Below, piece after piece: positions 20,828 to 31,686 of a DNA stretch of 64,000 bases. The translations under genes were made by a program, and so were the position numbers. This stretch comes from a virus, in the IMG/VR virus record IMGVR_UViG_3300032241_000649, positions 1 through 64,000 of that record. The stretch is one strand, 5' to 3'. The notes beneath the pieces are model-generated. The model was not told where the DNA came from, ran no database searches, and was given only the letters and a program-made list of their open reading frames with translations. Each line of letters starts with the position of its first letter. Within the stretch, counting starts at the first letter, position 1.

Positions 20828-20975
20828 TCTCCTGCTGGCGTAGTGGAATAGTCGGGGTAACCCCCCGACTATTTCGCTATGTCCGCAAGGGCATAAGGTA
20901 GGAGAGTCTGGCTCAACCCAGCACGCAGGGCTATGGAAGGTGAGTACACCAATCGTTAGCCCGTCCAGCAGGAGA
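20828..20975 (+). ncRNA. Candidate structured RNA module 1
   Basis: 11 bp closing helix TCTCCTGCTGG/CCAGCAGGAGA enclosing a ~19 bp hairpin and smaller stems. Confidence 0.5.
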
Positions 20976-21102
20976 GTACTCTGCTCATCACCAACACAAA
21001 CAATCAGGCCACTGGCTATGTGGCTATACGTCTGTCCAGCCGTAAGACCAAGTCTAGACGGCTATGGTTTGGCTATTATCAGGTATCAACAGGAGGTTAA
21101 TT

Positions 21103-21907: not shown

Positions 21908-22016
21908 AATGCTGTTCGTATTCATTATGGCAGTAGTCATGCTGGTCTTTGCTTATGCCATCATTGACAAGCAGTACAAAATTGAACGCGAGTACATGGA
22001 GTCGGGCAATGAGTAA
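21908..22016 (+). CDS. Small membrane peptide
   Basis: AAAGGAG RBS before MLFVFIMAVVMLVFAYAII; start coordinate approximate. Confidence 0.5.
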
Positions 22017-22350
22017 GGGCCCAACACAAACATTCCTGCAGGTCATAGTTGATTGGCAAGACGCGTCTCTATGCACGCAGACTGACCCCGATTTATTCTT
22101 TGCTGCTGACAATGAGCGTGGACGAGCCAAGAATGAGCGTATAGCTCAGGCTAAGGCTATTTGTAATCAGTGCCCAGTAATACTAAACTGTTTACAACGT
22201 GCTGTATATACCAATGATGCCTATGCAATCATGGGCGGTACAACACCTGAAGAGCGCGGTCATTTAAATGACGGCTCAGGCAAGATGACAACCAGTTGGT
22301 CATTGGAGACCATATTGGCTAACAAGGCGAAGGAGGCAGTAAATGCTTGA
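22009..22350 (+). CDS. whiB: WhiB-family Fe-S transcription factor (1)
   Basis: WQDASLC...DPDLFF...CNQCPVILNC...AIMGGTTPEER. Confidence 0.88.
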   Translation: MSKGPTQTFLQVIVDWQDASLCTQTDPDLFFAADNERGRAKNERIAQAKAICNQCPVILNCLQRAVYTNDAYAIMGGTTPEERGHLNDGSGKMTTSWSLETILANKAKEAVNA

Positions 22351-22489
22351 TGAAAATAGACTACAAGAACTAATGGCTATCTCTGAGCAGATCAATTCAG
22401 TACAGGCTAAGTTGGCTGAGATCTATGCTGAGATACATGTGTATAAGTTAATCGGTGAAATCCTAGAGAAGATTGGAGAGTCCAAGTGA
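22343..22489 (+). CDS. Small coiled-coil protein (not in track)
   Basis: AAGGAGG RBS; MLDENRLQELMAISEQ... Confidence 0.55.
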   Translation: MLDENRLQELMAISEQINSVQAKLAEIYAEIHVYKLIGEILEKIGESK

Positions 22490-22623
22490 GCAAAGCAACA
22501 GAGTTTACAGTTGGCAGTAAATGGGTATCTATTGGTGTAAGCAAGCGATTTGGCATTGGCTTCTACATAGATAGGTATTCTATGGGCATAGACTTTCTAT
22601 GCTTCTGGTTCTGTATTGAATAG
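22486..22623 (+). CDS. Small hydrophobic protein (not in track)
   Basis: GTGA coupling; MSKATEFTVGSKW...FWFCIE. Confidence 0.5.
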   Translation: MSKATEFTVGSKWVSIGVSKRFGIGFYIDRYSMGIDFLCFWFCIE

Positions 22624-22628
22624 TGTTT

Positions 22629-23031
22629 AGTGAGCACGCTCAGTGCCGTTTCCACTGAGCAGGCGGGGAAGTTGAGGGGCTTCCCCGCCATTTCTATGCC
22701 ATGCGATAGGTACATGCTATGTATCTATCGGATTGCATAGCCAATCTAGCGGTAAGACATGGACAACATGTAAGCAGTAAGGAATGACGGTTGCTAAGGC
22801 TTGTAAGGAAATTAACCCGAGAAAAGCTGAACCCCTGATTCGGACCCTTTATTCTCGACAGACTTCGTGGGCTGTCACAATACTGGCTCGCTATTGAGTC
22901 TTAAACAAATGTCTCTATCCGTAACTCACATAGTATGGGGAGTATAAACCATGCAAGCAAGTTGGTTTCTACAGTTCTTCCTTAGGTAAAAGAACTCCTC
23001 ACCTGAGCAGGTGAAGGCTAAACTGCTCACT
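22629..23031 (+). ncRNA. Candidate ~400 nt structured RNA module 3
   Basis: No track ORF; successive hairpins at 22638-22660, 22662-22689, 22704-22730; possible pseudoknot at 22999-23029; ends complementary (AGTGAGCA/TGCTCACT). Confidence 0.5.
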
Positions 23032-23050
23032 CTTAATAGAAAGGATAGAA

Positions 23051-23221
23051 ATGTCACCAACACAAACAACAACAACCACCCTCAACCGAATGATCTTCAT
23101 TGTGGAAGCCCAACTGTTTCATGGGCTAACACGCAAGGAAGCATTAGCCTTAGCGGCTGATGAGATGGACACTCTATACGATCGTGTAGAGACAATAACA
23201 ACCTCCGAAAGGGGCCTATAA
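23051..23221 (+). CDS. Small hypothetical protein (not in track)
   Basis: AGAAAGGA RBS; MSPTQTTTTTLNRMIF... Confidence 0.55.
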   Translation: MSPTQTTTTTLNRMIFIVEAQLFHGLTRKEALALAADEMDTLYDRVETITTSERGL

Positions 23222-23222
23222 A

Positions 23223-23489
23223 ATGGCAAAAGGTAAAGCAACAACACCACAGGTAAATACTGCTGGTGACCGCAAGAATGGCAAGGCACGTAAGAAAAAC
23301 CCCGGCCCTGCTACAACAGAGAAGACCAACTTCACACACGTGAATGGTCGCACAGCTGAAAGCAATGCCAAGCGTGAGGCTTGGAAGGCTGCTGGTGGTC
23401 GTTGGGATCACAAGTCTATCCCTCATTGGAAGACAGGCAAGGTCTACAATCCACAGGCTGTATCACTAGTGGGTAAGTCACTAGTATGA
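23223..23489 (+). CDS. Basic hypothetical protein
   Basis: 88 aa, K/G-rich. Confidence 0.65.
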   Translation: MAKGKATTPQVNTAGDRKNGKARKKNPGPATTEKTNFTHVNGRTAESNAKREAWKAAGGRWDHKSIPHWKTGKVYNPQAVSLVGKSLV

Positions 23490-23758
23490 GCAAGAAGATT
23501 AAGCGTAAGCAACTGATCAAGATGTTGGAGGCTAAGTTAGCTGAGGCTGAGTTAGACCTGCAATACGAAGATCATCAGCACAGTCGTGCATATCACACTG
23601 GATTAATTGACGGACTAGGTGAAGCCCTAGTACTGTTGCGCCCAGAATCACGCCGTCTACCTATCACCATTGCATGGTATCAGGAAGACGAGCCAACACA
23701 AACAATGGCGCTAGAGCGTCAGCGTGAGTATATATTCGAAACTATGGAGGCATCGTGA
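23486..23758 (+). CDS. Hypothetical protein
   Basis: ATGA coupling. Confidence 0.6.
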   Translation: MSKKIKRKQLIKMLEAKLAEAELDLQYEDHQHSRAYHTGLIDGLGEALVLLRPESRRLPITIAWYQEDEPTQTMALERQREYIFETMEAS

Positions 23759-24489
23759 CTTGGAAACTTCATACATACGATTACTGGTCTACCTACTTAG
23801 ATGGTGGTCGTAAAAAATACATGCGCCCACTTTATGAGTATGGAATGGTAATTGAAAAAGCCAACCATTGGCAACCTGCTGGTAGTGACCTACAAATCAA
23901 AGCAAGATGGGCAGCTAACCTACCATTTATTACAGTACACAATGATGATTCATTTACTCTACAAGGTGGCACTGTTAATAGTTTCTGGGGTGGCAACTAC
24001 GACATCATAAAATCACAGGGTATACGCTATCGCATGTGGAAGTACACAGGCATACGCGTATTTCAAAAGAACTATCAAATTAGAGTTCTTGAGTTAGACC
24101 CTGCACGTACACCATCTAAGATACAAGGCTGTCGGCGTTGTGCTCAGACAGGCTTAGTAGATGGTTGGTGTAGTCCACCAACTTGTTATGATGGTAGTAG
24201 AGATGATCAAGGCGTGTTCTCATGTCCTACACATCCAGATGCTACCCAGACTAATGGCTACAGACAATGGCATCAACTTCCATGTTCACACGGAGGTATA
24301 GATGGTCATTCAGTAAAACGCGGTAATACATGCTATTCGTGCAGTGGCACAGGCAAGCGCGAATATGGCAACAATCCGATTTCTTTACCATGGGATGGTT
24401 CCCCTCTTAGGGTAAAGGATAGAAAGATAGTCCCGATAACAACGTCAGGACTAATTAACTTAGAAAGGTTGGTCGCACAATATGCTTGA
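23755..24489 (+). CDS. Cys-rich protein with DnaJ-like CxxCxGxG Zn motif
   Basis: CRRCAQTG...CYSCSGTG. Confidence 0.6.
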   Translation: MTWKLHTYDYWSTYLDGGRKKYMRPLYEYGMVIEKANHWQPAGSDLQIKARWAANLPFITVHNDDSFTLQGGTVNSFWGGNYDIIKSQGIRYRMWKYTGIRVFQKNYQIRVLELDPARTPSKIQGCRRCAQTGLVDGWCSPPTCYDGSRDDQGVFSCPTHPDATQTNGYRQWHQLPCSHGGIDGHSVKRGNTCYSCSGTGKREYGNNPISLPWDGSPLRVKDRKIVPITTSGLINLERLVAQYA

Positions 24490-24991: not shown

Positions 24992-25015
24992 CCAACACAA
25001 ACAAACGGGGGGCAT

Positions 25016-27141: not shown

Positions 27142-29001
27142 ATGTTTCAAGATGAGTTAGATGAATCGTACTACGCACAAGAACGAACTGAGGAGATACA
27201 GGTTAGATCTGTTCGACTCAATGCGCTCTGTCGTGTATATGAACAAGCAGACCGTGTTCTCACTGGTGATCCAGTGGTAGTAAATGTAGCAAATGACGGC
27301 CCCGCACCAGCGTGGTCCGACGGTGCAAGCATTACTATCAATGCCAGTCAGATAGGTGACATGGACTTAGAGTCATTGACTCAGGTCAATGGCCTGAACT
27401 ATCATGAGCTTGCCCATCACTTATATACTCCAAGACGAGGCACAGACCTTGTCAAATGGGTTATAGAAAATAACTACATGCAGACGTTCAATATGCTGGA
27501 GGATCAGCGTATCGAGACTTTGCTTGTAGCACGCTATCCATCTATTGCTCCATATCTAACAGCTACGTGTGCTCGTTGGCTTGCTGCATCTCCTGATGAA
27601 ATGCAAAGCAACTATGTACTCATGCGTGGTCGTAGGTATCTGCCTGTGGAATTGCGTCAAGCATTCCGTGATATGTTCAACAATAAAGAACTTATCCCAG
27701 CAATCATTGACATCGTAGATCAGTATCGTCTCTTAGCATTCCCCAAAGATTATGCTAAGGCTCGTGAACTAATCAAACGGTTCAATGATGAAGTGCTACC
27801 AAACATGCCAAAAATTCCACAAGGTGGCAATGGATGTACTAATCGTGATCCAGTAACCAAAGGTCGTCCTGAGCCAGGCAAGGCACAGGAACGTGACGCA
27901 CAGCGTGCTAATGGTATGGGCAAAGCAGAATCTGAATGGACTCCACGTAAATCTATTGAGGAGCAAACAGAAGATGCGCCCAACACAAACCCAACTGAAA
28001 ACATAACTCAAGTTATGTCAACAGAGGAGCAACTAGAGGCTCGTCAGCAATCACAACAATCTAACACAGCTGGATTAGCTGCTGGTGATGGTCACATTGC
28101 TAGTGCTGGTGGATTGCCAAACAACATCAATGACATGCTTGATAACGTCATACAGTCTGTACTAGAACGTAAAGATGTACAGCAGGACGTTAAAATCAAG
28201 CAGAAAGTAATCATTGGTGGTGATGGCAAGCATGAGGATACATTGCGTACGGGTAAGTTTGACAAAACCCCTGTACCATCTGAAGCCATGGCTAACTTTC
28301 GTAAGTTTGCTAAGGAACTAGAACGCTTGCGTGATGAGTGTGAGCCAATGTGGCATCGTGAGGAAGCGTCTGGCCGTCTCAATGTACAACGTGCATTGCG
28401 TGGCTGTGAAATTGACGAAGCCTTTGACCGCTGGGATGAAGGTAACGATGGTGCTGATATCGAAGCGGTAATCATGGTTGATCGGTCAGGCTCTATGAAT
28501 TCTGGTAAAAATGACATGCACGCTTCTATCGCTAGCTGGACTATCAAACGTGCACTAGAAAGCATCGGCGCCCCGGTGACTGTGTATGCGTTTGATGACC
28601 AAGCTGAACTAGCCTATGCTCGTACTGAACTGGCTAGCAAGACTCAATACAAATTCATCTATGGTAATGGTGGTACAAATCCGTACTCTACATTGCTAGC
28701 AGCTGAGCAGTTATTGATGTCCTCTCGTAAGAAAAATAAGATGCTGTTCATGATTACTGACGGCGCGTTTGATGCCCGCAGGAATGATGAAATTATCGCC
28801 CGCATTCAAAAGCGTGGCGTGCTAACTGCAATGACTCTTATCATGCAGGAAAGTGATCTAGAGTACTACACAGAACGTGGTACAAAACTAGAAGAGTTCC
28901 GTCATGGTATGGAAATCTTTGCTCGTATCAATTCAGCACGTGACTTGGTTCCATTTGCCAAGTCTGTAGTAGCCGGCGCTATCAAGAAGCGTGGGCGTTA
29001 A
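27142..29001 (+). CDS. VWA-domain protein with N-terminal HExxH metallopeptidase-like region (CobT/NorD-like partner)
   Basis: HELAH...LEDQRIE; MIDAS DRSGSM, GGT, ITDG. Confidence 0.85.
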   Translation: MFQDELDESYYAQERTEEIQVRSVRLNALCRVYEQADRVLTGDPVVVNVANDGPAPAWSDGASITINASQIGDMDLESLTQVNGLNYHELAHHLYTPRRGTDLVKWVIENNYMQTFNMLEDQRIETLLVARYPSIAPYLTATCARWLAASPDEMQSNYVLMRGRRYLPVELRQAFRDMFNNKELIPAIIDIVDQYRLLAFPKDYAKARELIKRFNDEVLPNMPKIPQGGNGCTNRDPVTKGRPEPGKAQERDAQRANGMGKAESEWTPRKSIEEQTEDAPNTNPTENITQVMSTEEQLEARQQSQQSNTAGLAAGDGHIASAGGLPNNINDMLDNVIQSVLERKDVQQDVKIKQKVIIGGDGKHEDTLRTGKFDKTPVPSEAMANFRKFAKELERLRDECEPMWHREEASGRLNVQRALRGCEIDEAFDRWDEGNDGADIEAVIMVDRSGSMNSGKNDMHASIASWTIKRALESIGAPVTVYAFDDQAELAYARTELASKTQYKFIYGNGGTNPYSTLLAAEQLLMSSRKKNKMLFMITDGAFDARRNDEIIARIQKRGVLTAMTLIMQESDLEYYTERGTKLEEFRHGMEIFARINSARDLVPFAKSVVAGAIKKRGR

Positions 29002-31639: not shown

Positions 31640-31686
31640 AAAGCAAAGGCCCCCGGCTCTTAATTGAGTCGGGGGCCATTTGTTTG
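31640..31686. terminator. Bidirectional terminator between convergent regions
   Basis: GGCCCCCGGCTC-TTAATT-GAGTCGGGGGCC with T-rich flanks on both strands. Confidence 0.8.

Follow-up and report, generated by a model that had tools for sequence, protein, structure and literature searches.

A mosaic of conserved hairpin modules with a small phage-restricted pseudoknot at a gene junction of a probable actinobacterial phage

Results

The sequence analyzed here, in the following called the window, is the initial 64 kb of a virus record in IMG/VR that measures 88.7 kb and has a CheckV completeness of 91%. Up to ~19.8 kb its genes lie on the minus strand; plus-strand genes extend from 19.9 to 31.7 kb, beyond which the minus strand is used again. 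Within this plus-strand arm a WhiB-family regulator is encoded at 21949-22350, just upstream of the block studied here, and since a WhiB gene is carried, phage and host are probably actinobacterial. The block itself occupies the gap 22624-23050 (427 nt), which an earlier note made from the sequence alone had described as non-coding. This description held: the longest ORFs within 22624-23050 amount to 36-37 aa on the plus and 49-50 aa on the minus strand, and tblastn searches against relatives revealed no coding conservation of these small ORFs, the matches either containing in-frame stops or mirroring nucleotide-invariant stretches. A conserved small ORF across the block, the observation which the earlier note had named as speaking against an RNA, was likewise not found by tblastn.

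On the plus strand, the minimum free energy (MFE) of the block is -143.1 kcal/mol compared with -117.7 ± 6.0 kcal/mol for shuffled sequences (z -4.24; 0 of 100 shuffles as good). The minus strand reaches a z of -5.0; as both strands fold better than their shuffles, energy alone does not choose between them. The earlier note could not match the block to tmRNA, RNase P RNA or a riboswitch, and here matches to Rfam families, tRNA, tmRNA and riboswitches were all absent. Rfam 15 (4227 models) yielded no match in the whole window at gathering thresholds and only three chance-level matches (best E 1.1) in 22300-23300 at E<=10. In eleven relatives only tRNAs were matched, with one chance match in positions 400-1500 of locus L009 at E<=5. 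ARAGORN predicted neither tRNA nor tmRNA genes in the whole window, and a BLAST search of 22300-23500 against GenBank phages gave no match. The public sequencing runs listed as containing the stretch comprised its probable source DNA sample and no RNA run. A group I intron was also rejected: no Intron_gpI match was obtained at E<=10, the upstream ORF has its own stop, and the downstream ORFs differ among relatives.

Relatives were collected in two steps. The 244-aa protein encoded at 23755-24489 was used as query and led to three IMG/VR loci, to which 22961-23031 is 81-92% identical (blastn), far above its flanks. DNA patterns derived from 22961-23031 then gave 16 IMG/VR and 17 metagenome loci, so that the comparison set including the window contains 34 loci with 21 distinct core sequences. 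The metagenome scan yielded close relatives only and no variant of stem P1 (see below). Downstream-gene synteny is kept in the relatives, and from the upstream ORF stop through hairpin d the order of the modules is kept in ~16 distinct relatives: the ORF stop, hairpins T1 and T2, module a, a stretch with TGCTAAG, a variable GNRA-type hairpin, module b, a spacer of ~45 nt and hairpin d. At least six helices show compensatory changes, and G-U intermediates occur on the plus strand; the hairpins in the block are accordingly selected RNA structures.

The three consecutive hairpins reported for the 5′ end are all present. T1 (22638-22660, plus strand) has an 8-bp stem, GCTCAGTG/CACTGAGC, with the loop CCGTTTC and directly follows the stop codon of the ORF 22486-22623. 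At this position most relatives carry a hairpin whose stem differs and whose loop is similar (CCGTTC, CCGTTAT); in the L006, L007 and L010 types T1 is absent. T2 (22662-22689, plus strand) combines the two features of an intrinsic terminator, a G+C-rich stem (12 bp, 8 of them G-C) and a subsequent T-run in the tail ATTTCTAT. All relatives have a G+C-rich hairpin followed by a run of 5-8 T at this site, and a scan for strong plus-strand terminators between 19.8 and 32 kb returned only two, T2 and one at the end of the arm (31648-31677). By these features T2 appears to be an intrinsic terminator that closes the first plus-strand unit. The T2 loop contains TGAGGG, which all relatives keep; GAGG or GGAG also occurs in the loops of P1 and d, i.e., ribosome-binding-site-like sequences are displayed in several loops.

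The third hairpin, module a (22693-22741, plus strand), has the outer stem CTATGC/GCATAG, which a 1x1 mismatch separates from an inner stem variable in sequence and length. MFE folds of 16 relatives gave a nearly perfect hairpin of 22-28 bp. Covariation was observed for 8 of the 11 pairs of the inner helix and for 2 of the 6 outer pairs, and in L026 the outer stem carries a triple compensatory swap (CATAGC/GCTATG). With 22 bp and one 1x1 mismatch in the window, module a has the duplex length of RNase III substrates (at least 20 bp, about two turns), and on grounds of this length RNase III-type processing is plausible. The 3′ strand of module a is shared with the 5′ strand of hairpin a2 (22730-22747, plus strand; GGATTG/CAATCT), which contains a G-U pair in the window and in which 2 of 6 pairs covary (variants GGGTTG/CAACCC and GGATTA/TAATCC; general form GGRTTR/YAAYCC). 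As the connecting loop would be a single nucleotide, simultaneous formation of a and a2 appears unlikely, and the two are taken as alternatives rather than as a knot. Further downstream, the conserved stretch at 22780-22807 (plus strand; AGGAATG..TGCTAAGGCT) is single-stranded or weakly paired according to the alignments. It includes the invariant TGCTAAG, and its reading frame is not conserved. The GNRA-type hairpin that follows in relatives is largely missing in the window (19-column gap).

Module b (22846-22886, plus strand) has the outer stem CCTTTATT/AATACTGG, the internal loop CTCG/CAC, the inner stem ACAG/CTGT and an invariant 10-nt loop, ACTTCGTGGG. Its inner stem (22857-22876) is the internal stem GACAG/CTGTC that had already been noticed. 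Five of the six inner and all four outer pairs covary, and among 16 distinct sequences there are 9 distinct inner stems, all fully paired. A pattern scan placed module b in this phage lineage only: in the 20-odd further matches, which come from unrelated and mostly G+C-rich sequence, the stems are unpaired. No additional copies were found in the same genomes. A sigma-70-type promoter (TCGACA-18-AATACT, 22855-22884) was considered and rejected: it lies across hairpin b, relatives do not keep its spacing, and its "-10" behaves as a covarying stem.

Hairpin d (22933-22954, plus strand) is formed by the stem GTATGG/CCATGC with the conserved loop GGAGTATAAA (consensus RGNNTATAAA). The stems of relatives differ and stay paired (GCATGT/ACATGC, CACGG/CCGTG, GATAG/CTATC). 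On the 3′ side of d, relatives carry the 11-mer CCAACACAAAC and, in many cases after one more hairpin, a strong ribosome-binding site and a gene called gene X here. The window has a d-like hairpin (AGCAG/CTGCT, loop GAGAGTACT) directly before another copy of the 11-mer at 20966-21002, so that the arrangement of d plus 11-mer is repeated in the arm. The polar motif C-CAACACAAAC occurs about every 1 kb in the plus arm, with plus-strand sites at 20992, 22022, 23058, 23694, 24993, 26210, 27120 and 29004; further sites lie at 27981 and 62244. At 24993, 27120 and 29004 it is located between a stop codon and the next ribosome-binding site, and in relatives it lies directly after d. This motif could be a CA-rich translation enhancer, a standby site or a leader signal.

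Module c (22960-23031) comprises 72 nt, made up of an invariant hairpin and an H-type pseudoknot. Its 5′ half (22960-22996, plus strand) starts with the invariant AGTTGGTTTCTA-N-, followed by P1 (22973-22996), the second internal stem that had been noticed (AGTTCTT/AAGAACT), with the 10-nt loop CCTTAGGTAA. The first 40 nt of module c, P1 included, are identical in 24 aligned sequences but for one base. P1 shows no covariation, and its pairing is thus neither supported nor refuted; a constraint at the level of protein or DNA would explain the invariance of P1 and the 5′ half just as well as one at the RNA level. A covariance model found one full copy of module c per genome in five near-complete genomes and no further copies in the same genomes apart from knot-only copies (see below). 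A riboswitch, a pistol/hammerhead-like ribozyme and a tRNA-like fold were considered for module c and were unsupported by eye and by Rfam.

Given this invariance, a function at the DNA level has to be weighed, in which the invariant 40 nt of module c would be a promoter and operator, with TA-N-AGT as -10 box and the inverted repeat AGTTCTT/AAGAACT as repressor site, or in which the block would be a replication origin. P1 and its 5′ flank are indeed invariant without covarying, the single variable base is the third position of a TANNNT-like hexamer, and the second plus-strand unit needs a promoter, none having been identified elsewhere. However, a -35 box is absent, the sequence is unrepeated and present in one copy per genome, and the count of consensus promoters is not above that of shuffles. 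As base composition shows neither an A+T dip nor a skew change at the block, a replication origin was rejected. Moreover, the covariation with U-G pairs in the neighboring helices argues for RNA. A DNA-level element therefore appears quite unlikely.

The 3′ half of module c (22997-23029, plus strand) is the pseudoknot, referred to as the knot. Stem 1 is CC-TCACC/GGTGA-A-GG, the knot stem pairs TGAGCA (23004-23009) with TGCTCA (23024-23029), and the linker is CTAAAC. The earlier note had proposed this H-type fold (TCACC/GGTGA plus TGAGCA/TGCTCA, 22999-23029) as an alternative structure of the 3′ end; covariation supports it as real. Two pairs of stem 1 and four pairs of the knot stem covary, 100% of the cells are paired, and the covariation score was reached by 0 of 500 shuffles, while slid-partner controls were 33-48% paired. 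Variants of stem 1 are CAC/GTG, GTC/GAC and GAC/GTC, those of the knot stem GAGCA/TGCTC, AAGCA/TGCTT, GAACA/TGTTC, GAGTG/CACTC and GAGTA/TACTC. GAGTA/TGCTC represents a U-G intermediate of the knot stem; since this state would be an A-C mismatch on the other strand, RNA of the plus strand is favored. At 23009-23010 the window reads CAGG, with G in place of the T found in 23 of 24 relatives (CATG). The G gives stem 1 an additional C-G pair, so that no connecting nucleotides remain, and the knot of the window may be a weakened copy that folds less well.

The ribosome-binding site AAAGGA and the ATG of the ORF 23051-23221 follow 11 nt after the knot (23040-23053, plus strand). Directly after ATG 23051 there is a copy of the 11-mer, which elsewhere forms part of leaders that are not translated. 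Translation may accordingly begin at the in-frame ATG 23090, or a leader may have given rise to the N-terminus. The ORFs after module c in relatives differ in their opening residues, and homology to one another is not apparent. The ribosome-binding region 23031-23050 (TCTTAATAGAAAGGATAGAA) resembles the acceptor and the start of the D-arm of a tRNA-Arg(CCU) (TCATAGTTCAATGGATAGAA, L010:4743-4770), and a tRNA-Arg(CCU) holds the same position in L006, L007 and L010. In these three loci module c ends 2 nt before the tRNA, which is genuine and separate from module c. From this resemblance, 23031-23050 may be the remnant of a lost tRNA gene.

In all relatives whose sequence extends far enough, d and c are separated by gene X, a conserved ORF of ~140 aa that is preceded by a leader and a ribosome-binding site of its own. 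Its products are 30-77% identical among relatives and belong to no Pfam or PHROG family, and no relative of gene X was found at E<=1 anywhere in the 88.7-kb record. The protein (L009:889-1329, with homologues in about 30 loci) has a helical, Lys/Glu-rich N-terminal half and ends in ..W-A-S-F-I-R. In relatives, the end of gene X is followed by 12-25 nt, a small variable hairpin (P0) and then module c, whereas in the window hairpin d, letter-for-letter as in L015, L021 and L026, leads straight into module c. The distance from b to c is 97 nt in the window vs. 557-876 nt in relatives. This difference, the sequence leading from d into c and the absence of gene X imply a lineage-specific deletion of about 540 bp with its junction at 22955-22960, which comprised the 11-mer leader, the ribosome-binding site, gene X and hairpin P0. 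Judging from the alignments, the 400-nt contiguity of the block thus arose here by the loss of gene X. The window can be regarded as a natural deletion variant, in which flanking RNA modules have been kept under selection without the gene that they normally enclose.

These observations bear on the suggestion that the block is one large non-coding RNA of ~400 nt, of which the non-coding and structured character and the absence from Rfam stand, while a single molecule does not. A trans-acting or scaffold RNA could reach from T1 to the knot, or from T1 to d (about 320 nt); in either case gene X would have been inserted later in the other lineages. Such an RNA would agree with the overall fold (z -4.2) and with the finding that each hairpin of the series is conserved in its loop and covaries in its stem. 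The series is moreover intact in a phage without gene X and hence does not serve X alone, and large ornate RNAs near tRNAs do exist in phages (GOLLD, ROOL). However, in all ~30 relatives the unit contains an ORF that has a ribosome-binding site of its own, a terminator-like hairpin lies within the unit, no terminator follows b or d, Rfam gives no match, and the knot occurs autonomously elsewhere. Nor is there a conserved closing helix: the 8-nt complementarity that had been seen between the ends of the block is present (GTGAGCA 22630-22636/TGCTCAC 23024-23030), but 11 of 12 distinct relatives lack it, it is in competition with the pseudoknot that covariation supports, and an end-to-end helix was rejected on this basis. 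Among long-range helices between modules, one weak 4-bp candidate only was found. A single large RNA is therefore unlikely, and the comparison with relatives indicates that the block is a mosaic of separate conserved hairpin modules.

In contrast to module b, the knot extends far beyond this lineage. L006, L007 and L010 contain a second, knot-only copy (stem AGAG/CTCT, no P1) between the tRNA and the next ribosome-binding site, and L015 has a similar extra copy. A scan with the knot-core pattern (CTGAGCAT, 8-16 nt, TAAACTGCTCA) found 104 IMG/VR stretches vs. roughly 4 expected (about 50-60 Gb), the window holding one knot of this pattern. Stem 1 has at least 4 bp in 79 of the 97 matches read, with 30 distinct stem sequences. 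The same scan of 596 Gb of cellular genomes, which serves as negative control, gave 40 matches vs. about 39 expected by chance. In 36 of these 40, stem 1 has 0-3 bp; the four matches with paired stem 1 are all on short contigs, three of which repeat the knot-and-downstream context of IMG/VR matches, the fourth being a 504-nt contig. As the cellular matches are at chance level, the knot is essentially restricted to viral contigs.

The sequence after the knot was compared in 67 distinct viral contexts. In 31 of them the knot is followed by a ribosome-binding site and a start codon within about 35 nt, in 13 by a promoter-like TTGAYN with an extended -10 box, and in three by a tRNA-Glu 2-3 nt after the knot; the remaining 20 contain other sequence. 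In ten loci (L058, L063, L066, L073, L074, L091, L101, L107, L114, L129), TTGATT begins 1-3 nt after the knot and is followed by TTTCTA..TAGAAA, an inverted repeat, and by TGCTAnnnT. Together these resemble a promoter to which an operator may belong; the knot of these loci, with its CC/GG lower stem, is nearly identical to that of the window. From its distribution and covariation, the knot appears as an autonomous fold of many unrelated phages, placed just ahead of genes and tRNAs.

The contexts of the knot also bear on a small-molecule riboswitch. Its architecture is that of the preQ1-I and SAM-II aptamers, including the A-rich third loop, and its compact H-type fold, the conserved ..UAAAC linker and the ribosome-binding site downstream would be in line with such a function. 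On the other hand, no Rfam riboswitch matches even at E<=10, the ribosome-binding site lies outside the knot, the sequence of the knot stem varies freely, the genes downstream are unrelated to one another, and the same knot is found before tRNAs and promoter-like sites. This reading is disfavored by context and very improbable.

Discussion

The observations are best accounted for, and with somewhat more probability than not in our estimate, if the block is a set of independent cis-acting processing and stability modules at a transcribed junction of two co-directional plus-strand units. That the region is transcribed, and which enzymatic steps its RNA undergoes, we infer from the modules as follows. 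T1 and T2 would end the first plus-strand unit. RNA from read-through or from initiation downstream would fold into duplex a, a putative site for double-strand-specific (RNase III-type) processing, and removal of the 5′ strand of module a would free the 3′ strand to form hairpin a2 at the new 5′ end. Hairpins b and d might display their invariant loops to a factor, which is not gene X, because b and d are intact here without it. The knot, 11 nt before the next ribosome-binding site, would be a directional barrier that stops 5′-to-3′ decay, by an RNase J exonuclease or by 5′-end-dependent RNase E-type scanning, short of the cistron or tRNA behind it. Against a barrier speak the 13 other contexts that place the knot just upstream of a promoter-like site, where a 5′ barrier would act only on read-through RNA.

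The same modules could instead form a regulatory leader read by proteins, with b and/or d as boxB-like elements for a phage antiterminator or translational repressor and the knot as an operator like that of T4 gene 32. In b and d, freely covarying stems carry 10-nt loops that do not vary, the block directly follows a terminator and opens a long operon, and early regulators (WhiB) are encoded just upstream. Nevertheless, no candidate binding protein was identified, gene X is excluded as the factor, being absent here with b and d intact, and no plus-strand terminator follows downstream until 31648. Furthermore, the genes after the knot differ among relatives, and the knot is therefore not a gene-specific operator. 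We regard this alternative as rather unlikely and return to the processing and stability modules.

Within that preferred reading, a bolder proposal is that the knot represents the first exoribonuclease- or scanning-resistant RNA class of bacteriophages, with the lineage-specific hairpins a, b and d as a new processing and recognition leader around it. We put this forward tentatively, as a possibility about which doubt prevails. The knot would then be a portable, protein-free shield used by phages of many hosts before cistrons, promoters and tRNAs, and would correspond in bacterial viruses to the xrRNAs known from RNA viruses of eukaryotes. Should decay of the RNase J or RNase E type be blocked by it, DNA phages would also make use of programmed nuclease resistance, the insulation of segments in long early phage transcripts would be explained, and a 30-nt part for the stabilization of bacterial mRNAs and tRNA precursors would be at hand. 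Neither the knot nor hairpins a, b and d have an entry in Rfam, and the knot is among the smallest folds with clear covariation here while being common in phage contigs.

Comparison with known systems

GOLLD and ROOL are large ornate phage RNAs found near tRNAs. The block shares with them that it is large, hairpin-rich, phage-borne and sometimes next to tRNA genes. It differs in that neither Rfam model matches, a protein gene splits the region in all relatives, and a multi-helix closing architecture is absent.

RNase III processing hairpins lie between early genes of phages, as in the R-sites of T7 and the 5′ stabilizer of SP82. Module a is similar to these as a nearly perfect intergenic duplex of 22-28 bp with one mismatch in a polycistronic phage unit, and hairpin a2 could form as a 5′-terminal hairpin after cleavage; sequence similarity between these sites and module a is absent. 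Among antitermination RNAs, the boxB of lambda nut presents an invariant loop on a variable stem, HK022 put being another RNA of this kind, and the leader pseudoknot of T4 gene 32 serves as an operator. Hairpins b and d resemble boxB and put in their variable stems, invariant loops and position in the leader of an early operon. In contrast to these, their 10-nt loops have no GNRA-like fold, no N-like protein was identified, and b and d lie after, not before, the only predicted terminator.

The knot itself can be set beside the frameshift knots of luteoviruses (BWYV type) and the preQ1-I aptamer, which are compact H-type pseudoknots with an A-rich third loop. Topology and size agree, with a stem 1 of 4-6 bp and a short first loop, and the third loop of the knot ends in AAAC, which could lie in the groove of stem 1. 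Unlike the BWYV knot, the knot lies outside a reading frame and has no slippery site. Unlike preQ1-I, it has no Rfam match (E<=10) and no riboswitch gene context, and its ribosome-binding site, 11 nt after the knot, is unsequestered.

Further similarities were found with small nuclease-resistant RNAs. Folded RNAs can mechanically block bacterial RNase J1, and since a flaviviral xrRNA stops this enzyme as a general mechanical block, the proposed mechanism could operate in bacteria (PMC5760640). Both Xrn1 and ribosomes are stalled by a small motif in which a hairpin is combined with a UUAAAC spacer (PMC10520033, PMC10321173). The coremin xrRNA-C has a 4-bp hairpin with a YGAD tetraloop or a YGNNAD hexaloop (PMC10520033), followed by the conserved 8-10-nt spacer GUUAAACUAC and a second downstream hairpin that is needed for Xrn1 resistance (PMC10520033, PMC10321173). 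In xrRNA-WCC, loop and spacer are joined by Watson-Crick pairing of 3 bp, with G as first loop base (PMC10321173). The knot shares with both types a very small hairpin, an interaction of loop and spacer, and untranslated or intergenic sites, and its spacer resembles theirs in containing UAAAC (PMC10520033, PMC10321173, PMC6546385).

Compared with coremin, the loop of the knot (CUGAGCAU, 6-8 nt; UGAGCA in the window) has U instead of G as second base and conforms to neither YGAD nor YGNNAD. Its linker of 6-15 nt ends in UAAAC (CAAAC in one copy) and is otherwise different from the coremin spacer. No conserved second hairpin follows, its place being taken by a ribosome-binding site, a tRNA or promoter-like sequence, and the carriers are DNA phages of bacteria, hosts without Xrn1. 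As the loop and the second hairpin deviate, the knot is not a coremin member, and a coremin-like nuclease resistance is a hypothesis drawn from analogy. With respect to xrRNA-WCC, Watson-Crick pairing between loop and spacer is present with four compensatory pairs, but it extends over 5-6 bp instead of 3, and the first loop base is C instead of G. By these comparisons, the nearest described relatives of the knot are the small nuclease-resistant and frameshift pseudoknots of RNA viruses.
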